Shown in pieces: positions 2,709 through 54,303 of a stretch of 64,000 bases of DNA (within the stretch, counting starts at the first letter, position 1; the number at the start of each line of letters is the position of its first letter). The notes below the pieces were generated by a model. The model did no database searches and was not told the origin of the DNA. It was given only the letters and a program-made list of their open reading frames with translations. A program made the translations under genes and the position numbers. Location of the stretch: IMG/VR virus record IMGVR_UViG_3300037418_002651, positions 5,299 through 69,298 of that record; one strand, 5' to 3'. Source of the DNA: a virus. Its lineage: Duplodnaviria; Caudoviricetes.

Positions 2709-5264
2709 TCACCTACTCGCGTTCCAGTTGTAGGGGTTCAGCGGCGGGGCGCCCTCTCCGTTCGCCCCCGCGATGCCGGTCGCGGAGGAGATCTTCAAGA
2801 GCTGCTTCGCCGTGTCCGAAAGATCCACTACGACCTTACCGTTTGCAGCGGTCCCGCCGCTGTTGGCCGACGTCTTCCGGCTCGGGTGCTTCTTCTCCCA
2901 CTCCTTGATGGAGGTCCCCTCGTTGCCCTTGGACTTGGACGCCTCCGAGGTCCAGTTGGCCGTGCTGTCGGTCGCACCGGTGCCCAGGAGGTCCTGGACC
3001 GACTTGCCCGATTCCGAGCCGTCCACGAACCGCACGGAGCCTGCGGACAGCTCCTCGGAGTGGTTCTTGATGGCGTCCTTCAGGGACACCACCCGCTGGC
3101 CCTTGGAGGTGTGGACGACCACCTTGGCCGAGTCCTGGTCCTTGACGTGCTGGAGCAGGTTCTCGATCACCGGGTTGCGCTGACCGGACTTCTTGACCTG
3201 GTTCTTGTACTGAACCATGGCGGACGAGTCGCCCTTGTCGGTGCCGATGTCGTCCACGATCCCGGCCGTGACCGTCTCCACGAAGGCGCCACCGATCTTG
3301 GCAGCGGTGCTGGAGCCGTGGTCGATCTTGGTGGAGAAGCCCTTGATGAAGCCGGAGTCCTTGCCCTGCTTCGCCGCCTGCTTGGTCGACATGGGTTTGT
3401 TGGCCTTGGCGTTCTTCTCCGCATTGGCCAAGTCGCCGTTCTGCCCGGCGATCAGGGTGAACGCGTACGCCACGGCCTTCTGCGGGTCACTGGTCTGGAC
3501 GATGCCGAACGCCGCGAGCTGCTGCTGGATGACCGAGATGTTGTGGTTCGGGAAGGCCTGCATGAACGCGGGCACGATGCTCAGGGCCGCGTCCGAGTCG
3601 AGCTGGCCGCCGAGCCCGTTCGCCTGCTGCTTGACCCAGTTGATCTCGTCCTGGGTGAAGATCTGCGACAGCAGCGAGAGATTCTCCCCGGCTCGTGCCT
3701 GAGCCGCCGCGAGCGGGTTGGTGGTCTGCAACGCGGTGTACTGGTTGTACGTCATCCCGGCGTTCGAGGACGCCATGTAGGCGTACTGCTGGCCCATCTG
3801 GCCGGACAGGTCGATGTCCTCGTACGACCGGCCCAGGGACGTCTTGCCCATCTGGATGTTCTGGGCCGTCGGGATGGCACCGGCACCGTAGCCCGCCTGC
3901 ACCCCCGTACTCACCATGTCCATGAGCTGCTTGCGGGCCATCTGGGCGTTGACGCCCGCCCGACCGGCGGTGTCCGAGACGTCCTTGAGGGCCTTCTGGA
4001 GGCCGTTCAGGGACAGGGTGGAGTTCTTGGACACCACTTCGAGCTGCTGGAGGCTCTCGGACACGGAGGCGCCGTACGAGGACTTCCCGTGGTAGATGAA
4101 GTCCAGCGCGTTCTGGCGTCCGCCCTGACGCGAGTACTGATCCCGGACGCGGCCGTTGTACCCCAGGCGGGTCACGCCCTTGAAGGCCTGCCGGGCCTCC
4201 TCGTCGGTGAAGAAGCCCGTCGTGGAGGCGACATACGCCTCCTCGTGGAGCCGCTCACCGAAGCCGGAGAAGTTTCCGCCGCCCTCGACGTTCTGGTAGT
4301 ACTCGTTCTTGTTCCGCTGGCTCTTGACCTCGCCGAAGGCGCTGTCGACCAGTCCTACGAGGGGGATGTTCCGCCGGGCCCAGCCGCCGATGCCGGAGTT
4401 CATGCCCCACAGATGGCCAGGGTTGCCCGGGGTGTGGTTGGCGCCGTAGGCACCGGAACCCCCGCCAGCACCGCCGTGACCTCCGCCGCCACTGGCGGGA
4501 CCGTACGGGCCATAGGGGCCGTAGGGGCCGTGTGGGGAGCCGGGACCGCCGAAGTAGATGGGGTTCGGGGGCAGGCCGGAGGGTCCCATGCCGTACGGGC
4601 CGGGGCCGAAGCCTCCACCGCCGAAGCCCCCTCCCGAGCCCCCAGAGCCGCCGCCAGAGCCTCCCGAGCCGCCGCTGCCACCACTTCCCCCGGAGCCTCC
4701 CGGAGGACGCCAGTAGGGCGACCAGACACCGAAGGCGGACCGGCTCCAGTTCTGCCGGGTCTGCTGGATGGTCCGGTCCCTCAGATCGGAGAGGGTGGCT
4801 CCCCAGTCGCCCGCGTTGGTGGGCATCCGGGTGTGGTCCTGGAGGAACTGCGCGGTGACCTGGCCGACCGGCGGAAGGCTCCACCGAGGCCCTCGGGGAG
4901 CCGGAGACGGTCCTGCCGGGGCGCCGGAAGCCGAGGGCGCGCTCGAAGCGGATCCTCCGGACGCGGATCCCGGGGTGGGCGGCAGAGACGTGATCGTGTA
5001 GACGGGTCCGCTGGGTGCCGATGTCGTGTGTCCGGCCAGAGGGTTGTGGGCGCCCATGCCGACACGGAAGCTGGCCGCCGCAGCGGATCCGGTTCCCGTC
5101 ATGAAGGACTGGGCCATGTGCAGTGATCGCGCCATGGAGTCCCGCATCTCCCCCATGACGCGGGCAGTGTTCTCCTGGCCGCGCACGAGCAGGGAGAACA
5201 GGCGGCCCAGGTCCAGGTTGTCGTTGACGCCGCTGTCCGGCTCGCCGTCTGCCATCAGACCCAC
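2709..5264 (-). CDS. Tape measure protein (putative)
   Basis: 851 aa, directly after the frameshifted chaperone; Ala/Gly/Gln-rich helical character with a Gly/Pro-rich N-terminal linker. Confidence 0.65.
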   Translation of the reverse strand: MGLMADGEPDSGVNDNLDLGRLFSLLVRGQENTARVMGEMRDSMARSLHMAQSFMTGTGSAAAASFRVGMGAHNPLAGHTTSAPSGPVYTITSLPPTPGSASGGSASSAPSASGAPAGPSPAPRGPRWSLPPVGQVTAQFLQDHTRMPTNAGDWGATLSDLRDRTIQQTRQNWSRSAFGVWSPYWRPPGGSGGSGGSGGSGGSGGGSGGSGGGFGGGGFGPGPYGMGPSGLPPNPIYFGGPGSPHGPYGPYGPYGPASGGGGHGGAGGGSGAYGANHTPGNPGHLWGMNSGIGGWARRNIPLVGLVDSAFGEVKSQRNKNEYYQNVEGGGNFSGFGERLHEEAYVASTTGFFTDEEARQAFKGVTRLGYNGRVRDQYSRQGGRQNALDFIYHGKSSYGASVSESLQQLEVVSKNSTLSLNGLQKALKDVSDTAGRAGVNAQMARKQLMDMVSTGVQAGYGAGAIPTAQNIQMGKTSLGRSYEDIDLSGQMGQQYAYMASSNAGMTYNQYTALQTTNPLAAAQARAGENLSLLSQIFTQDEINWVKQQANGLGGQLDSDAALSIVPAFMQAFPNHNISVIQQQLAAFGIVQTSDPQKAVAYAFTLIAGQNGDLANAEKNAKANKPMSTKQAAKQGKDSGFIKGFSTKIDHGSSTAAKIGGAFVETVTAGIVDDIGTDKGDSSAMVQYKNQVKKSGQRNPVIENLLQHVKDQDSAKVVVHTSKGQRVVSLKDAIKNHSEELSAGSVRFVDGSESGKSVQDLLGTGATDSTANWTSEASKSKGNEGTSIKEWEKKHPSRKTSANSGGTAANGKVVVDLSDTAKQLLKISSATGIAGANGEGAPPLNPYNWNASR

Positions 5265-6258
5265 TCCGTATCTTGCTCAACCTGCGTCGGATCGAAGTCT
5301 CGGGGCGGAGGCAGCGAGGGGGTGCTGTCCTCCGGCGGGGAGGGCTGTTCGGCGTCCGGCCCCTCCAGCGGGGCCCCGTCGACCGTGACCGTGTTGTCGG
5401 CCAGCATCCGGGCGAGGACCTCCAGTTCGTCCTCGGACGGCGCCTCGTAGTCCACACCGCTGTTGTCGGTGTAGTCGATCCCGTCGGACTCCGGAGTCTC
5501 GGAGGGGAAGTACTCCTCGAAGAGAACCTCCTCCTTGTACTGGCCGGAGGCCACCAGGCCCGCCTTGGCCACGTTCAGCAGGAGCTTGCGCCGGAACTCC
5601 TCCTCCCGCTCCTCCCGTTCGGCCTCCTTCAGGCCGTCGGCGAAGCGGAGGTACTCCAGACCGAGGATCTGCACCTCGGAGAGGTTGTCCCCCTGGAGAA
5701 GCCCCCGGGCCTGAGCCTGCCTCAGGATCCGCTCTACGAAGGGTTCGAGCCCTCGGGGGCCGATGCTTTTCCCATGGCCGCCACGACCCGGGCCGCGAGG
5801 TCCTCCAGTGCCACGTACTCGTTGAAGACTGCGTCCACCGTGAAGGGGAACCAGGTGTCCTTGACGTAGTTGAAGCGCTGGAGGCCCCACTCGTACGACC
5901 GGCGGCTCTCGCCGATCGGGACCGGAAGCTCCTCGCCGTCCACGCTCATCGTGCACATGGCCGCGATGGCGCATCCGTAGGCCCGGTCGGCACCCATGGT
6001 GTCGGCGAACTCCTTGATGATCTGGGCCACCGCGAGCTTTTCGCCGTCGCGGAGCGTCCGGATCACGAAGTCGTGGCCGAGCCACGTGAAGGGCTTGGAC
6101 AGGGCCCCCACGAACGCGAGGCCCTTCAGGCCTTCCGCGTACCGGGAGTCGAACGAGGGCAGCAGGTTGCCCTCCTCGTCACGGAGGGTCCCCGGCTCGT
6201 CCTCGGGCTCCTGCGCCAAAGCCGTCGGGTCGTAGGCCTTCGCCTGCTGCTCGCTCAT
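5255..6258 (-). CDS. Tail assembly chaperone, -1 frameshift-extended form (GT-like)
   Basis: G GGA AAA at 5773-5767; the -1 frame continues SIGPRGLEPFVERILRQ... to the stop at 5255. Confidence 0.75.
5734..6258 (-). CDS. Tail assembly chaperone (G-like, short form)
   Basis: 174 aa between tube and tape measure; contains in-frame ATG GGA AAA slippery heptamer near its end. Confidence 0.8.
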   Translation of the reverse strand: MSEQQAKAYDPTALAQEPEDEPGTLRDEEGNLLPSFDSRYAEGLKGLAFVGALSKPFTWLGHDFVIRTLRDGEKLAVAQIIKEFADTMGADRAYGCAIAAMCTMSVDGEELPVPIGESRRSYEWGLQRFNYVKDTWFPFTVDAVFNEYVALEDLAARVVAAMGKASAPEGSNPS

Positions 6259-18364: not shown

Positions 18365-18895
18365 CTAGCCCTCACGGGTGCCGAGCGTGACCCGCACCCA
18401 CTCCATGCGGTCCTCGTTCCCCTTGACGGCCTCAGGCACGTACTGGGACGCCAGGTTCTTGTGCAGGTTGCACAGCGGCGGGGTGTCCTTGAGCTTCTTC
18501 TCGGAGATGGCCACCGGGGTGCCGCACTTGCCGGTGCCCCGGGTGTCCGGGCCGACGCAGAAGGCGCTCACCTGGTCGCGGCTGGTGGGTCGGTCGATCG
18601 TCACCTCGACCTGCTCCTGCGCGCCTTCCTGGCGGCGCTTGAACGCCTCCACCTGGCGCGAGAGGGCCTCGGTCACCTCGGGGTCGGACTGGTCGTCCAT
18701 CACCTCGATGACGCCCCGGGCGAGGGCGCGACGGAAGGCGACGGATTCCACGACCTCGCCGGGGACGAACTGGATGTCGTCTCCGGAGGGGTCGTTCTTG
18801 GCGCCCCACTCGACCGAGTGGGTGCCCTTCACGTCCGAGGCGAGGACGGTGATCCCGTCCATGAGGTTGCGGGCGACGACCGTTCCGACAGGCAT
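18365..18895 (-). CDS. Hypothetical virion-region protein with C-terminal Zn motif
   Basis: 176 aa; C-x9-C...C-x2-H; RBS GAGGAG. Confidence 0.55.
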   Translation of the reverse strand: MPVGTVVARNLMDGITVLASDVKGTHSVEWGAKNDPSGDDIQFVPGEVVESVAFRRALARGVIEVMDDQSDPEVTEALSRQVEAFKRRQEGAQEQVEVTIDRPTSRDQVSAFCVGPDTRGTGKCGTPVAISEKKLKDTPPLCNLHKNLASQYVPEAVKGNEDRMEWVRVTLGTREG

Positions 18896-19145
18896 GGTGA
18901 CTCCTCGAAGAGTGCTGTTCTTTCACCCCTTACGCGGAGTCACAGGAGGTCGAACAGGAAGAGGGGCCCGACCTGCCCAATGGCCGGGCCCCTCTTCTCG
19001 CGCTGTGCTCGACCAGGACCGGGGGGAATGGGAGCCCTGGGAGCTTGAGTGGGGGTAGCGCGTTACCCAGAGCATGACAGTAAGCCCTGACAGTGTCAAC
19101 CCCTCTCCAGTTGACGTCGTCAACGCCAGGCCGGATGCTTGATCC

Positions 19146-19391
19146 ATGGCAGAGAAGCACGCAGAGGACCAGGAGCCCCAGCTCTACGACCTCCGTAAGG
19201 TCCAGGTCCTGGGCCTCTCGGAGCTGTCGAAGCGCTGGAAGGTCTCCAAGCAGAGGGTCATGGAGATCACCGCCACGCGGTGCCCGCACTGGCGGAAACT
19301 CGACTGTGGACGGGTGTGGCTCCTGCACGAGGTGCAGGCGTTCGAGAAGACCTGGGCCCGCAGAACCGGGGTCCACATAGACCAGGAGTAG
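19146..19391 (+). CDS. Small HTH DNA-binding protein (excisionase/AlpA-like)
   Basis: VLGLSELSKRWKVSKQRVMEI...GRVWLLHEVQAF winged-HTH pattern. Confidence 0.65.
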   Translation: MAEKHAEDQEPQLYDLRKVQVLGLSELSKRWKVSKQRVMEITATRCPHWRKLDCGRVWLLHEVQAFEKTWARRTGVHIDQE

Positions 19392-19424
19392 TCGACAGGA
19401 CAGATAAGGCCCTGATAGTGTCAG
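19392..19424 (+). promoter_or_regulatory. Sigma70/HrdB-like promoter plus palindromic box upstream of array 1
   Basis: TCGACA-N18-TAGTGT; overlaps CTGATAGTGTCAG. Confidence 0.55.
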
Positions 19425-19432
19425 GGTCTCGC

Positions 19433-19530
19433 GGCACGGCACGGCTCGGCCAGGCAAGGTTGGGCTAGGCAGGGCACGGCGTGGCAGGGAGAAGGACCCT
19501 CGATTTTTAAAATCGGGGGTCCTTCGTTTT
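19433..19530 (+). ncRNA. GGY-NN pentamer array 1 plus 3' hairpin (candidate guide RNA)
   Basis: 11 in-phase units GGCAC GGCAC GGCTC GGCCA GGCAA GGTTG GGCTA GGCAG GGCAC GGCGT GGCAG, then GGA-GAAGGACCC...GGGTCCTTC-GTTTT. Confidence 0.75.
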
Positions 19531-19535
19531 GAGGG

Positions 19536-19565
19536 TTGACGCTCCAAGATTTCCTGTAGTACGGT
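19536..19565 (+). promoter_or_regulatory. Promoter of the Cas7-like gene with operator in the spacer
   Basis: TTGACG-ctccaagatttcctgtag-TACGGT. Confidence 0.7.
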
Positions 19566-19601
19566 CGTCCCCGCCAGAGACCGCAACCCAGGAGGATGCC
19601 C

Positions 19602-20177
19602 ATGAAGGTCCGCCTCAGCATGACCGGAACCAGTGCCCTGCTCATGCACAACGCCCGTCTGTCCGACCCGCTCGACCCCGTCACCAAGCAGCTCAAGGCC
19701 GTGTCCTCGAAGCGCACGAAGACGGATGACGACCAGGAGGAGATGGCCCGGATCGAGTTCCTGGGCGGTCTGTACTTCGATGAGGTCGCCGGTCCGTACG
19801 TCCCCGCCGTCAACGTCCACCGGTGCCTGGTGGAGGGGGCGAAGCTGAACAAGCTCGGCCGTCACGTGGAGCGTGGCGTCGTCCAGGTGGACGAGATCTG
19901 CCCGCTCGGCTACAAGGGCCCCAGGACCATCGAAGAGCTGTGGGCCGACAAGAACTTCGTCTCCCGGCTGTCCGTCGGCGTGACGACCTCTCGGGTCATG
20001 CGTACGCGCCCGCAGTTCCGCCAGTGGGTCCTGGAGGCCGACTTCATGGTGGACACCGGCCAGCTCGACCTGGGCACCTTCGCCGAGGTCGCCGAGAAGG
20101 CGGGCGCGATGATCGGGATCGGCGACTACCGCCCCCGCTTCGGCCGCTTCGAAGCCTCCGTCCAGCAGATCGACTAG
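19602..20177 (+). CDS. Stand-alone Cas7/RAMP-like protein
   Basis: RAMP hallmarks: N-terminal strand plus ALLMHN, PYVPAVNVHRCLVEGAK (compare Cas7/Csm3 YIPGSSLKG), C-terminal Gly-rich loop GIGDYRPRFGRF; RBS GGAGG before ATG 19602. Confidence 0.7.
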   Translation: MKVRLSMTGTSALLMHNARLSDPLDPVTKQLKAVSSKRTKTDDDQEEMARIEFLGGLYFDEVAGPYVPAVNVHRCLVEGAKLNKLGRHVERGVVQVDEICPLGYKGPRTIEELWADKNFVSRLSVGVTTSRVMRTRPQFRQWVLEADFMVDTGQLDLGTFAEVAEKAGAMIGIGDYRPRFGRFEASVQQID

Positions 20178-20187
20178 GAGGACACGC

Positions 20188-20724
20188 GTGAACCCCTTCG
20201 AGCCCAAGGGCCCCGTGGCCAAGTGGGAGCTGATCTACGAGCACCTCGCCGACCTGGGCGTGGGCCAGACGGTCACCTATGAGGACCTGTCCTCGTGGGT
20301 CGGCCACGACATCCGCGAGAACCGCAGCCCGTATTACCAGGCGGTGAAGAAGCTCCGCGAGAAGGAGCACCGGACCCTGGTGAACGTCCAGGGTGTCGGC
20401 TACAAGGTGGTGGACGCGACTCAGCACGGCGAGATCGCCCGGCACCACACCCAGAAGGCGAACCGTCAGGTCACTAAGGCCCGGCACGTCCTGAGCAACA
20501 CCGACTACAACGATCTGCCGCCGGAGATTGCCCAGCGCTTCCAGGCGCAGGAGCAGAAGCTCGGCAACCTCCAGACCCTGACGCGCTCTCTCGCACGCCG
20601 TCAGGACAAGCTGGAGAGCACCCTGAAGGCCGTCCGCCGTGAATCCAAGGAGAACGTGGCGGAGCTGAACGAGCGGCTGGCGCGGCTGGAGCGTATGGTC
20701 CAGCCGGAGGCCAAGTCCGCCTGA
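20188..20724 (+). CDS. Putative winged-helix plus coiled-coil protein, co-transcribed with the Cas7-like gene
   Basis: 178 aa, RBS AGGAGG; N-terminal wHTH-like (VTYEDLS...NVQGVGYKVV), C-terminal heptads. Confidence 0.55.
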   Translation: MNPFEPKGPVAKWELIYEHLADLGVGQTVTYEDLSSWVGHDIRENRSPYYQAVKKLREKEHRTLVNVQGVGYKVVDATQHGEIARHHTQKANRQVTKARHVLSNTDYNDLPPEIAQRFQAQEQKLGNLQTLTRSLARRQDKLESTLKAVRRESKENVAELNERLARLERMVQPEAKSA

Positions 20725-20732
20725 TCTTTCAG

Positions 20733-20815
20733 GGCTCGGCACGGCTGAGGCACGGCTGGGCTAGGCCGGGCACGGCGTGGCAAGGCAGGGAGAAGGGGTC
20801 CTTCGGGACCCCTTC
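20733..20815 (+). ncRNA. GGY-NN pentamer array 2 plus hairpin
   Basis: 11 GGC-NN units (one extra A at 20748), then GGA-GAAGGGGTCC-TTCG-GGACCCCTTC. Confidence 0.75.
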
Positions 20816-20832
20816 GTCATGAGGAGGTTTCT

Positions 20833-21009
20833 ATGGCGCGACGTGAGTTGAGCGCGGAGAAGAAGGCGGAGAGGGACCGCCTGGATGACGAGTGGGTACA
20901 GCGGCAGTTGGAGAAGGCTCCTCTGCTGACCGTGCGGCAGATCCAGATGCTCCGGCGGCTGAAGACGGATCTGACCCGGAAAGCGCTGGACTCCCGGGAT
21001 AGGCCTTGA
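20833..21009 (+). CDS. 58-aa hypothetical protein between arrays 2 and 3
   Basis: Read by hand: RBS GAGGAGG, MARRELSAEKKAERDRLDDEWVQRQLEKAPLLT...DRP stop. Confidence 0.6.
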   Translation: MARRELSAEKKAERDRLDDEWVQRQLEKAPLLTVRQIQMLRRLKTDLTRKALDSRDRP

Positions 21010-21029
21010 TAGAGTTAAGGCCTGGTCAT

Positions 21030-21154
21030 GGCTGGGCAGGGCTCCGCGTGGCAAGGTCTGGCGAGGAATGGCATGGCTAGGCGCGGTTGGGTCCGGTAGG
21101 GCTCGGCAAGGCATGGGGAAGGCCCCCTCTCGAATTCTCGGGAGGGGGCCTTCC
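21030..21154 (+). ncRNA. GGY-NN pentamer array 3 plus hairpin
   Basis: 17 in-phase pentamers (two degenerate: CGCGT, GGAAT), then GGAAGGCCCCCTC...GAGGGGGCCTTCC; upstream -10 TAGAGT. Confidence 0.75.
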
Positions 21155-21172
21155 AGCGTCCGTATGGCCGGA

Positions 21173-22162
21173 CTACGCCTTGGTGATGGTGGCGATGCCC
21201 CTCGGGTTCAAAATGGACATATTGACCATTTCGTCGAAAACCCAACCCTTCCAGAAGGCTTCGACCATGTGGTTCTCTTCCACGTCCAAGCTGTACAGAA
21301 CGGGGAAAACGCCCAGGAAGTTGGGCTCGGGGGTCAGGAAGACCTTGCCCTGAGGCACGATGATCGAGCGCTGGATCTGGAATTCGCCGAACGAGGTGAT
21401 GGTCTCGCCCGCGACGACCCGGTCCTTGAATGCCCAGCCCGTCTGGTTGATGTCCCAGCGGTACATGTCACGGAAGTCGAACGGATTGATGAGAATCCGC
21501 GCCGACTGGAGTTCGTGCATGTCCGTCATGGCGACGGCGCTGTACAGCGAACCCGGCGTCAAATAGCCCGACGCCTCCGTGATGTTGTGGTTCGGGGTGA
21601 CCGTGTGGTCCGGCCGGGTGGCGTAGTCCGTGAGGGCCGCCTGGAGCAGAACGAGAAGGCGGGTGTCCTCCTGCTTGAGGATCGCCTGCTTGGTCTCGTC
21701 CTGGGCCTGCTCGACCGCGTTGATACGCAGGTAGAACAGGTCCTCCTTGCGGATCGCCGGGCGGCTCGCGATGCGGAAGAACCGCACCGGCACGCGCTTG
21801 CCCTCGAACGGGGTCACGCGGACCTCGCCCTCGGTGCCGCTCATGATGTACGCCTGACCCAAATCGTCCCAGACGTCGTATTCGACGGGAGTGCCCGGGG
21901 TGACCGGGTCCTCCACGAGCACGTTTCGGGTGATGCCCTGGTAGCGCAGCTTCAACTGGATGGGGCCCACCATGCCGACGCCGAGACGGCGGATACCGCC
22001 GACCTCGTCGGAGAGGATGAGCGCCATCTTCTGGACCTTCGCCTCGTGAGAGAGCGGGGCGCTCTTCTCGCGGCGGGCGATGATCGCGGAAGCGTAGTCG
22101 TCCGACTTCCGGGCGATGCGGCCACGGAGGGACGAGGTGGTTGCGAGGGTCTGAGTCGTCAT
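21173..22162 (-). CDS. Major capsid protein
   Basis: 329 aa with strong codon bias; follows the scaffold and decoration genes; resembles Bxz1-type capsid proteins from recollection. Confidence 0.75.
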   Translation of the reverse strand: MTTQTLATTSSLRGRIARKSDDYASAIIARREKSAPLSHEAKVQKMALILSDEVGGIRRLGVGMVGPIQLKLRYQGITRNVLVEDPVTPGTPVEYDVWDDLGQAYIMSGTEGEVRVTPFEGKRVPVRFFRIASRPAIRKEDLFYLRINAVEQAQDETKQAILKQEDTRLLVLLQAALTDYATRPDHTVTPNHNITEASGYLTPGSLYSAVAMTDMHELQSARILINPFDFRDMYRWDINQTGWAFKDRVVAGETITSFGEFQIQRSIIVPQGKVFLTPEPNFLGVFPVLYSLDVEENHMVEAFWKGWVFDEMVNMSILNPRGIATITKA

Positions 22163-54122: not shown

Positions 54123-54214
54123 GCGCCCTCCACCCCTTCCCGGGAATGAGCCCCTGAAGGACAGCATTCTCCTGGGCATAGGTCGCCCAGACCTTGATAT
54201 AGTCAGGACCTCGT

Positions 54215-54303
54215 GGTTTGGCCCGGCTTAGGCAAGGTGGGGCTGGGCAGGGCGCGGTATGGCAGGGAGAAGACCCCCATCATCAGATGGGGGTCTTCGT
54301 TTT
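54215..54303 (+). ncRNA. Orphan GGY-NN pentamer array 4 plus hairpin
   Basis: 10 units (extra A at 54230), then GGA-GAAGACCCCCATC-ATCA-GATGGGGGTCTTC-GTTTT; upstream TTGATATAGTCAG box containing -10 TATAGT. Confidence 0.75.

Follow-up and report, generated by a model that had tools for sequence, protein, structure and literature searches.

RNA-guided silencing of DNA by phages has been described for VIPR (Viral Interference Programmable Repeat) systems, among them the type II systems of Escherichia phage SUSP1 and of a Pseudomonas fulva prophage (bioRxiv 10.64898/2026.04.26.720920). Cryo-EM structures exist for the SUSP1 system (bioRxiv 10.64898/2026.04.26.720927; PDB 36pp), in which residues H17, R138, D177 and R179 of the Vipr protein bind the constant bases G1, G2 and Y3 (10.64898/2026.04.26.720927). 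Both systems transcribe their arrays, and the RNA is recovered together with Vipr and visible by cryo-EM (10.64898/2026.04.26.720920; 10.64898/2026.04.26.720927). Published VIPR systems show an absence of self-targeting. The solo vrRNAs described in print are directed against vipr, against other vrRNAs, or against satellites or repeats of the host (bioRxiv 10.64898/2026.10.15.759431). Experiments to date have been carried out on the E. coli and Pseudomonas systems only.

The Cas7-like gene and flanking five-base repeat tracts studied here very probably form a genuine type II-like VIPR system, an assignment that rests on homology and gene content, whereas the formal published typing follows a Vipr phylogeny. 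The locus is a fresh example of an already published class, VIPR being phage RNA-guided DNA silencing, and adds a well-resolved actinobacteriophage case to a class of RNA-guided DNA silencers less than one year old. It lies in a window of 64,000 nucleotides, the whole stretch of DNA that was analysed (positions 5,299 to 69,298 of IMG/VR record IMGVR_UViG_3300037418_002651). The viral contig of 69,298 bp represents about 45% of the genome of a large actinobacteriophage of lytic type, a myovirus resembling those of cluster C. When the sequence was re-read, the features of a first-pass annotation were all found at their coordinates (Table 1), including ORFs of 81, 191, 178 and 58 aa and the motifs PYVPAVNVHRC and GIGDYRPRFGRF in the 191-aa protein. 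That annotation had likened the locus to VIPR-type systems, and a literature check confirmed that these exist and work in the way it proposed; the novelty that it implied does not hold because the class is already in print in preprints of 2026.

Table 1 Features of the VIPR locus and of the solo vrRNA gene (positions in the window).
Feature	Position	Strand	Basis
Quasi-palindromic box CCCTGACAGTGTCAA ahead of the gene for the 81-aa HTH protein, candidate promoter/operator	19085..19099	+	Same type as the boxes of the vrRNA genes; read from sequence
Small HTH-like protein, 81 aa, candidate accessory/regulator linked to vrRNA arrays	19146..19391	+	ORF
vrRNA1 gene: box TGATAGTGTCA (19413-19423), array, GGAGAAGG-hairpin-GTTTT tail	19413..19531	+	Sequence, fold
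vipr: 191-aa Vipr RAMP protein, predicted guide-binding filament subunit	19602..20177	+	Homology, model
vap1-like accessory gene, 178 aa	20188..20724	+	PHROG, synteny, model
vrRNA2 gene: degenerate box TGATCTTTCA overlapping the vap TGA stop, array, GGAGAAGG hairpin tail	20722..20816	+	Sequence, fold
58-aa ORF, strong RBS GAGGAGG	20833..21009	+	ORF list
vrRNA3 gene: box TGATAGAGTTA overlapping the TGA stop of the 58-aa ORF, leader, array, GGGGAAGG hairpin tail	21007..21155	+	Sequence, fold
vrRNA4, a solo (orphan) gene lying 33 kb away from vipr: box TGATATAGTCA, array, GGAGAAG hairpin-GTTTT tail	54195..54303	+	Sequence, fold

The tail of vrRNA3 abuts the end of the major capsid protein gene (21173-22162, - strand), whose product is 60-62% identical to those of Mycobacterium phages Myrna and Phabba, Gordonia phage Skog and Rhodococcus phage E3. 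The neighbouring ORFs of the cassette encode the HTH protein, the Vap1-like protein, the capsid and virion proteins. Megablast of a phage collection with 25 kb of the sequence gave no match, and the kinship seen through the capsid is at the family level only. An actinobacterium (species unproven) would distinguish the host of this phage from those of the SUSP1 and P. fulva systems.

The 191-aa protein aligns over its full length with PDB 36pp_D, the "SUSP1 Vipr protein" (residues 4-187 on 5-189, about 40% identity, E 2.7e-39), falls in PHROG 4652 (E 4.8e-58) and retrieved 402 homologues, those of Felixounavirus being 40% identical. The residues that contact G1, G2, Y3 and the DNA backbone in SUSP1 Vipr are conserved: SUSP1 H17, R138, D177, W178, R179, K33, R39 and K82 correspond to H16, R136, D175, Y176, R177, K32, R38 and K81, and H16, R136, D175 and R177 are invariant among 35 homologues. 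Differences from SUSP1 are the replacement of W178 by Y176, which is likewise aromatic, and of the Y3-pocket residues E71/M72, which are not conserved, by V70/N71. An AlphaFold2 model of the protein (pLDDT 93.5) folds as a Cas7/Csm3-type RAMP, with Csm3 and Cas7 of types III and VII as its best PDB matches in Foldseek (probability 1.0, TM 0.45-0.51) and with the G-loop GIGDYRPRFGRF aligned to GVGDWRPRFGRF. The RAMP fold proposed earlier for 19602-20177 is thereby upheld.

The RAMP/RRM fold with G-loop and thumb is held in common with the Class 1 CRISPR-Cas backbone (the Cas7 family: Csm3, Cmr4 and type VII Cas7), whose subunits, like Vipr, assemble along guide RNA into a helical filament in which bases are flipped at regular intervals. 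That the best PDB folds are Csm3/Cas7 subunits could point to a minimal CRISPR-Cas derivative, a Cas7-only remnant of type III, IV or VII with conventional contiguous guides, yet the probability of this is negligible. Identity to Cas7 chains is only 10-15% at a TM of about 0.5, as against the sequence homology to Vipr with an E value of 2.7e-39. Instead of a CRISPR-like repeat-spacer array the cassette holds only 5-nt periodic tracts: a period search of 18900-21400 returned 5-nt-based GGYNN arrays (periods 5-20) plus, within the vap gene, one short repeat of 9 nt, and no repeat-spacer array. No other cas genes occur among the neighbouring ORFs, Cas5, Cas6, a large subunit and adaptation genes all being absent, and neither CRISPR arrays nor cas genes were seen with the Vipr family in 140 loci. 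The registers differ as well, Vipr taking 5 nt, of which 2 are read with one target base skipped, and Cas7 taking 6 nt, of which 5 are read.

The contig carries four non-coding GGY-NN pentamer arrays, all on the + strand and none on the - strand; three of them flank vipr and the fourth stands alone, far from it and beyond the interval covered by the first-pass annotation. With a vrRNA taken as at least four tandem GGY/NN (YNNGG) units, GGY conserved and NN variable, intergenic beside vipr, the arrays count 11, 8 (+3), 17 (+2) and 7 (+3) units. By chance, as judged from shuffling the full 69,298-bp contig under a first-order Markov model, only 0.03 tracts would reach 6 or more GGY units out of 8, and none 7 or more. 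Array 1 (19433-19487) consists of 11 perfect GGYNN units, and its NN series, AC AC TC CA AA TG TA AG AC GT AG, reproduces exactly the one listed in the first-pass annotation. For arrays 2 and 3 the unit counts of that annotation (11 and 17) stood, but both contain phase breaks that it had left unmentioned. Array 2 (20733-20788) starts with GGCTC GGCAC GGCTG, followed by an extra A at 20748 and eight in-phase units at 20749-20788; it has the block TG TA (A/C)G AC GT in common with vrRNA1. Array 3 (21030-21114) keeps phase over 17 units, of which CGCGT and GGAAT are degenerate, and is preceded by GGCCT GGTCA and an extra T, and in array 4 (54215-54265) GGTTT GGCCC GGCTT and an extra A at 54230 precede seven in-phase units (54231-54265). 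Single-base phase breaks thus occur in three of the four arrays, unlike in the SUSP1 and P. fulva systems, and the longest vrRNA exceeds the 9-16 units reported for those clades. No structural accommodation of such breaks is known, and they were counted against the VIPR reading, as were the degenerate promoter box of vrRNA2, the plain hairpin tail, the altered Y3 pocket and the lack of natural targets in the searches made.

As the first-pass annotation had it, all arrays run into GG(A/G)GAAG and a hairpin: each closes in GGCA(G/T)-GG(A/G)GAAG(G), followed by a strong hairpin of 10-17 bp, in which 10 of 11 pairs show compensatory changes when 16 vrRNAs of the window phage and of a sibling are compared. 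For vrRNA1 the tail hairpin is present in the minimum-energy fold (whole-RNA z of -6.1), and a promoter-like TCGACA/GATAGT pair was flagged. A constant last unit with a structured 3' tail, and vrRNA genes on both sides of vipr-vap on the same strand, are found in the SUSP1 and P. fulva systems too. The tail itself differs, being a plain GC hairpin with a T run, terminator-like and with no pseudoknot, where that of the SUSP1 clade is a pseudoknot; no Rfam family matched it. Also unlike those systems, each vrRNA has its own quasi-palindromic, extended -10-like box, of a family defined from at least 20 copies in the sibling (G001) and three in G000. With a promoter-like box and a terminator-like tail, the vrRNA genes are candidate autonomous transcription units.

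The gene directly downstream of vipr encodes a DNA-binding-type protein of PHROG 5926 in the Vap1 position, as in SUSP1 and P. fulva type II. The 178-aa product falls in this family with an E value of 3.7e-10, and the family also takes in the gene directly downstream of vipr in wV8 (E 7e-76), Medea1, LittleE, prophiBWHA-1 and MakoManhole. Phage wV8 belongs to the SUSP1 clade (Vipr against SUSP1 Vipr, E 6e-128), and BLASTP of the 178-aa protein against wV8 gp94 gave an E value of 1e-6. By tblastn, a vap1-like gene stands beside vipr in 45 loci. The AlphaFold2 model (pLDDT 84.6) places an N-terminal wHTH before helices 77-103 and 112-171, and the C-terminal part is predicted to be a long coiled coil, about 40 aa more than in the SUSP1 type and common to other actinophage versions; the best Foldseek matches are wHTH regulators, all weak. 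Two further genes are additions relative to SUSP1 and P. fulva type II. The 81-aa HTH protein had no match in Pfam or PHROG; leads from the ESM Atlas were small actinobacterial "DNA-binding protein" clusters and HTH_17 (score 0.92-0.93), and a 46% identical homologue lies directly upstream of a 5-vrRNA array in the sibling, apart from vipr. The 58-aa ORF is not conserved, with no homologue by tblastn across 150 related loci (140 with vipr).

The association of this gene family with adjacent GGY-NN arrays recurs widely, same-strand arrays lying beside vipr in 75 of 80 related IMG/VR loci and in all six named phage loci examined. The sibling is a complete phage with a capsid 95.7% identical to that of the window phage, and the cassette occupies a different gap of the structural module in each. 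The sibling carries about 21 dispersed vrRNA genes of a build identical to those of the window, solo vrRNAs being common, yet the two phages have no guides in common and the longest common run is 3 units. Guide turnover is therefore complete between phages with 96% identical capsids, and a fixed scaffold with hypervariable NN between siblings is what would be expected of VIPR. As a stand-alone gene far from vipr, vrRNA4 resembles the solos of satellites and of vipr-null SUSP1-family phages (10.64898/2026.10.15.759431). The solos of the window and sibling, however, sit in phages with a vipr of their own, and no match of vrRNA4 to the target kinds of published solos was found in the sibling or related loci.

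If the locus behaves like the published SUSP1 and P. fulva systems, its arrays would be transcribed, filaments would assemble on the RNA, and DNA read by the 1-nt-skip code would be silenced. Each of the four arrays would give rise to a short vrRNA, starting from its own extended -10-type box and ending at the hairpin tail, on which Vipr protomers may polymerise, one per pentamer, with GGY sequestered and the NN dinucleotides exposed. The filament could then bind double-stranded DNA, reading NNxNNx... by the 1-nt-skip rule, and silence transcription there, possibly assisted by the wHTH/coiled-coil Vap1-like protein. During infection the system would probably serve to interfere with competing mobile elements or with functions of the host. 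As in SUSP1 and P. fulva type II, the context is a phage and the cassette is nuclease-free (no nuclease in the ORF list), so repression rather than cleavage would be expected. This had been anticipated earlier, as had a RAMP protein polymerising on RNA in a 5-nt register with GGY bound by protein; both agree with published VIPR (10.64898/2026.04.26.720920; 10.64898/2026.04.26.720927), and the latter with the homology to the solved Vipr.

The cassette encodes two proteins of a DNA-binding type and the box upstream of each array is quasi-palindromic and operator-like, which would also suit tracts acting at the DNA level, either as iterons or operator arrays for the HTH and wHTH proteins or as G-rich promoter/terminator padding, with the RAMP-like protein independent of them. 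Such an explanation is highly improbable, as every array is strand-specific, lying on the strand of vipr, and is bounded, as a transcription unit would be, by a promoter-like box on one side and a terminator-like hairpin with covariation on the other. The GGY-contact residues are moreover conserved, and work on the homologous SUSP1 and P. fulva systems has found array transcripts that purify together with Vipr and show up in cryo-EM. A second alternative, a decayed or domesticated VIPR remnant without silencing, in which for instance the vrRNAs serve as decoys only or Vipr is inactive, is likewise very unlikely. It would fit the phase breaks and degenerate units in arrays 2-4, the degenerate box of vrRNA2 and the lack of a target for any guide. 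However, neither vipr nor vap is disrupted, their ribosome-binding sites are good and the functional residues are invariant; array 1 is flawless, the sibling keeps about 21 well-formed vrRNA genes, and internal vrRNA degeneracy is frequent in functional systems (10.64898/2026.04.26.720920). The negative target result is itself weak, given exact or near-exact searching and an unproven host.

That the NN pairs spell a discontinuous target code, as proposed in the first-pass annotation, agrees with published VIPR, whereas natural targets were not found for the guides here. Targets were sought as exact or near-exact matches under the 1-nt-skip rule (NNxNNx..., at least 80% of NN positions). Self-targets at this level are absent from the 69-kb contig, the best 1-nt-skip match of any guide being 68-75% and not above the 0- and 2-nt-skip controls, in keeping with published VIPR, and cross-targeting between window phage and sibling gave nothing above controls in either direction. 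Nor was there 1-nt-skip enrichment for 24 guides across 1.9 Mb of related VIPR and prophage loci (150 loci). When the guides were decoded at the peptide level, with NN taken as codon positions 1-2 in either orientation, and compared with G000, G001 and all loci translated in six frames, the phages themselves gave no match of at least 70%. Exact 1-nt-skip searches of IMG/VR gave no match for 10 units of vrRNA2, the 3' 10 units of vrRNA3 or 10 units of vrRNA4; the 5' 10 units of vrRNA1 gave one, with about 0.1 expected, which was judged to be chance. It lies on a contig of 51% GC (L009), with the skip base on codon position 1 of a plausible ORF and the 11th unit mismatched. Seeds of 8 units returned 5 matches for vrRNA2 and 10 for vrRNA1, all in contigs of 30-57% GC and without convergence on a gene family. 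In JGI metagenomes the 3' 10 units of vrRNA1 were not found, and a 3' 9-unit seed of vrRNA3 had 9 matches, the best of which extended to 27/34 in a polyketide synthase gene, at chance level. Among 301 genomes of Streptomyces, the assumed host, vrRNA1 with up to 3 mismatches had only two unrelated matches, and no evidence was found for host promoters, which had earlier been suggested as targets. In five actinobacterial genomes bearing VIPR prophages, one 19/22 match adjoins an IS transposase.

A broader proposal, speculative and rather unlikely, is that VIPR in this actinophage lineage has grown into a genome-wide regulon with dozens of individually promoted solo vrRNA genes. The box CCTGAyAGAGTCA(A/G)G would act as promoter and as operator for the array-linked 81-aa HTH protein, the 5'-end phase breaks would be stops that set filament (guide) length, and the guides might be directed at host defence genes or sibling phages instead of satellites. 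The counts behind it are about 21 solo vrRNA genes in the complete sibling and at least four in the 45% fragment, and such a regulon is not described in the main text of the published VIPR papers. While the understanding of the VIPR mechanism is unchanged by this locus, it and the complete sibling offer features that could guide experiments, namely the putatively autonomous promoter-array-terminator vrRNA units, a cap formed by a plain hairpin where a pseudoknot would stand, the full turnover of guides between the two phages and the differing position of their cassettes.

Cultured actinophages also carry VIPR loci that have so far gone unannotated, their genes being listed merely as hypothetical or DNA-binding proteins: Gordonia phages MakoManhole (gp78/gp77) and Trine (gp41), Mycobacterium phage LittleE (gp34/gp33) and prophiBWHA-1 (gp43/gp42). 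Their Vipr proteins are 45-57% identical to that of the window, all four loci have same-strand GGYNN arrays, and in three of them (MakoManhole, LittleE and prophiBWHA-1) the PHROG 5926 gene lies directly downstream of vipr, as in the window. Their promoters differ from those of the window, and their tails form a GGTTCGAnTCC T-loop-like hairpin in contrast to the plain GAAGG hairpin seen here; a tRNA-like identity of vrRNA tails was rejected, ARAGORN having given a single odd call, in Trine. These SEA-PHAGES isolates make VIPR loci testable at the bench in Mycobacterium smegmatis or Gordonia, and the cassette of LittleE, like that of the window, lies antisense within the structural module.

The cassette next to the capsid gene is a new actinophage member of the VIPR systems, with modest architectural variations. 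These systems, reported in April 2026, comprise seven types of mostly viral distribution and consist of a Vipr RAMP protein, a vap accessory gene and vrRNAs with 9-16 YNNGG units and a structured tail; they address double-stranded DNA through a 1-nt-skip code and act by transcriptional repression (bioRxiv 10.64898/2026.04.26.720920). A filament and triplex mechanism is known from cryo-EM (bioRxiv 10.64898/2026.04.26.720927), satellite competition and hundreds of solo vrRNAs are described in an October 2026 preprint (bioRxiv 10.64898/2026.10.15.759431), and in a fourth preprint a genomic language model recovers VIPR arrays. All features by which VIPR is recognised at the sequence level are found at the window locus, which is best filed as type II-like. 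The first-pass annotation had proposed a candidate RNA-guided system, with a stand-alone Cas7/RAMP-like gene flanked by GGY-NN pentamer arrays. This interpretation is supported by Vipr homology, the RAMP fold and arrays at homologous loci; the novelty it had raised does not hold, as the class was already in print.

The 191-aa protein aligns over residues 4-187 to residues 5-189 of the Vipr protein of Escherichia phage SUSP1 (PDB 36pp_D, E 2.7e-39), matches PHROG 4652 (E 4.8e-58) and has 402 homologues in a large protein collection. Reading this alignment against the roles assigned in the cryo-EM preprint (bioRxiv 10.64898/2026.04.26.720927), the contacts to G1, G2, Y3 and the DNA backbone are retained: H17, K33, R39, K82, R138, D177, W178 and R179 of SUSP1 correspond to H16, K32, R38, K81, R136, D175, Y176 and R177, with H16, R136, D175 and R177 invariant in a 35-sequence alignment. 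The Y3-pocket pair differs, being E71/M72 in SUSP1 and V70/N71 here. An AlphaFold2 model (pLDDT 93.5, pTM 0.85), searched against a PDB copy older than the VIPR structures, gave only CRISPR RAMPs as top fold matches (Csm3, type VII Cas7 and Cmr4; probability ~1.0, TM 0.45-0.51). The suggested RAMP fold is therefore borne out by two routes, homology to SUSP1 Vipr and the modelled fold.

Starting 10 nt past the 191-aa ORF, the 178-aa ORF encodes a protein that matches PHROG 5926. A gene of this family lies directly downstream of vipr in Felixounavirus wV8 (E 7e-76) and likewise in Pseudomonas phage Medea1, Mycobacterium phage LittleE, prophiBWHA-1 and Gordonia phage MakoManhole. As wV8 Vipr is close to the SUSP1 protein (E 6e-128), PHROG 5926 is the gene family that takes the vap1 place in the characterised type II clade. 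Protection is enhanced by vap1, whose product is predicted to be DNA-binding and winged-helix-like (bioRxiv 10.64898/2026.04.26.720920). In the model of the 178-aa protein (pLDDT 84.6), an N-terminal winged helix leads into two long helices, and the best fold matches, although weak, are wHTH regulators. Actinophage versions are extended at the C-terminus by a common coiled coil of ~40 aa, which is missing from the E. coli and Pseudomonas proteins.

The array observation was likewise confirmed. Perfect (GGYNN)n runs were confined to the plus strand in a regular-expression scan and, with degenerate units allowed, the whole contig holds four tracts, all on the plus strand, whereas first-order Markov shuffles gave 0.03 tracts with at least 6/8 units and none with at least 7/8. 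Every array ends in GGCA(G/T) followed by GG(A/G)GAAG, with which a GC hairpin of 10-17 bp begins; in arrays 1 and 4, GTTTT comes after the hairpin. Across 16 aligned tails from the window phage and a sibling, hairpin pairing is kept by compensatory changes at 10 of 11 pairs.

Coordinates of the cassette, its arrays and related features in other loci
Feature	Genome or locus	Position	Strand	Remarks
Virion gene	window	18365-18895	-	
Array 1	window	19433-19487	+	11 perfect GGYNN units
-35/-10-like pair TTGACGCTCCAA...TAGTAC	window	~19536-19562		ahead of vipr
Stop codon of vap-like gene	window	20722-20724		TGA
Array 2	window	20749-20788	+	8 perfect units; one extra A (20748) throws three additional upstream units out of phase
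Stop codon of 58-aa ORF	window	21007-21009		TGA
Array 3, perfect part	window	21070-21114	+	9 perfect units; whole array: two units, extra T, 17 in-phase units (two degenerate)
Major capsid protein gene	window	21173-22162	-	
Array 4	window	54231-54265	+	7 perfect units, preceded by three units and an extra A (54230)
TTGACGCTCCAA...TAGTAGTCTTGACTCTGTCAG motif	G001 (sibling phage)	50379, 49015, 45338, 42504, 29110	-	
Homing endonuclease and array block	L010 (sibling phage)	3041-4528		G001 ~101.0-102.5 kb
vrRNA with T arm-like tail	L004 (Mycobacterium phage LittleE)	2669-2868, 4160-4445		
vrRNA with T arm-like tail	L003 (Gordonia phage Trine)	3634-3760		
gp40 as annotated	L003 (Gordonia phage Trine)	3591-4394		
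13-unit GGYNN array	L003 (Gordonia phage Trine)	3634-3698		
ARAGORN 'tRNA-???'	L003 (Gordonia phage Trine)	3789-3857		
vrRNA with T arm-like tail	L005 (prophiBWHA-1)	2809-2890		
Match to vrRNA1	L009 (IMGVR_UViG_3300050821_015813)	5580-5608		

Linkage of arrays to vipr extends to the relatives. Same-strand GGYNN arrays flank vipr in all six named phage loci examined and lie beside it in 75 of 80 IMG/VR loci, so that the refuting condition named in the first-pass annotation, homologous genes lacking adjacent arrays, did not hold. Genome-borne homologues are found in Streptomyces, Dermatophilaceae, Planomonospora, Mycobacterium, Gordonia and many Bradyrhizobium-type genomes. While the window has plain hairpins, the vrRNA tails of LittleE, Trine and prophiBWHA-1 carry a hairpin resembling a tRNA T arm (GGTTCGAnTCC). 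Since Rfam gave no match on these cultured-phage tails and ARAGORN a single odd call in Trine, a tRNA-like processing signal is only an idea. The annotated gp40 of Trine covers a GGYNN array, and what was annotated as its 5' part probably represents a vrRNA gene.

The contig (69,298 bp, GC 66.7%), of which the window comprises bases 5299-69298, is ~45% complete according to CheckV. Its major capsid protein shares 60-62% identity with the capsid proteins of four large myoviruses, Myrna and Phabba (Mycobacterium), Skog (Gordonia) and E3 (Rhodococcus); a megablast of 25 kb gave no nucleotide-level match in the phage collection. The plus-strand cassette sits between the minus-strand capsid gene and the next minus-strand virion gene, in the order 81-aa HTH-like ORF, array 1, 191-aa ORF, 178-aa ORF, array 2, 58-aa ORF and array 3. 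A homologue of the 58-aa ORF was absent from the 150 related loci searched.

A sibling phage (G001), complete at 159,746 bp with direct terminal repeats and a capsid protein 95.7% identical to that of the window, has one vipr-vap pair and ~21 vrRNA genes dispersed genome-wide. Next to its capsid gene, one gap contains five tandem vrRNA genes, an HNH/NUMOD-type homing endonuclease and, at 46% identity, a homologue of the 81-aa protein, and the vipr-vap pair occupies a different gap ~5 kb away. This indicates a cassette that moves within the structural module, with the small HTH protein following the arrays and not vipr. Its movement may be explained by the endonuclease next to the arrays.

In each vrRNA gene of the sibling, the box (C)CTGAyAGAGTCA(A/G)G and a short leader precede the array, and a GGCAK-GGRGAAGG hairpin follows it. 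In the window the box is present at vrRNA1, 3 and 4, the vrRNA2 copy is degenerate and overlaps the vap stop codon, and a related copy lies upstream of the 81-aa gene. As it resembles an extended -10 element (TGn-TAnnnT) and at the same time forms an inverted repeat (CCTGA-N5-TCAGG), it could possibly serve as promoter, operator or both. The vap-like gene and the 58-aa ORF both stop at a TGA with which a box (TGAT...) begins, so that coding genes and the putative promoter of the next vrRNA overlap exactly. A second, recurring motif class in the sibling, TTGACGCTCCAA...TAGTAGTCTTGACTCTGTCAG, combines a -35/-10-like pair with a subsequent reversed box; ahead of vipr in the window only the pair occurs, the reversed box being absent. 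That pair agrees with the CTCCAA-N6-TTGGAG promoter family described separately in the first-pass annotation.

Guide targets were not found, and matches stayed at chance level, a weak negative because the collection scans used exact patterns, the host is not identified and the contig amounts to half a genome. The sole exact 10-unit (20/20 bases) 1-nt-skip match to vrRNA1 in IMG/VR falls inside a coiled-coil ORF of a 51% GC contig with the skip base at codon position 1, and is probably due to chance. The window phage and its sibling have no guide in common, their longest common run being three units. Within the window, the block TG TA (A/C)G AC GT occurs in both vrRNA1 and vrRNA2; read as codons it gives (C/W)-Y-R-T-V, with arginine represented by AGR as well as CGN codons. 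A pair of guides directed at synonymous versions of a single motif would fit this pattern, but a target of this kind was not seen. NN usage is skewed over all 24 vrRNAs of the window and its sibling (AG 42, AT 31 and AC 19 of 220 units are the most frequent), so that nearly half of the units have A as their first N. The constant last unit GGCA(G/T) explains only part of this skew, which could reflect target composition or scaffold preference.
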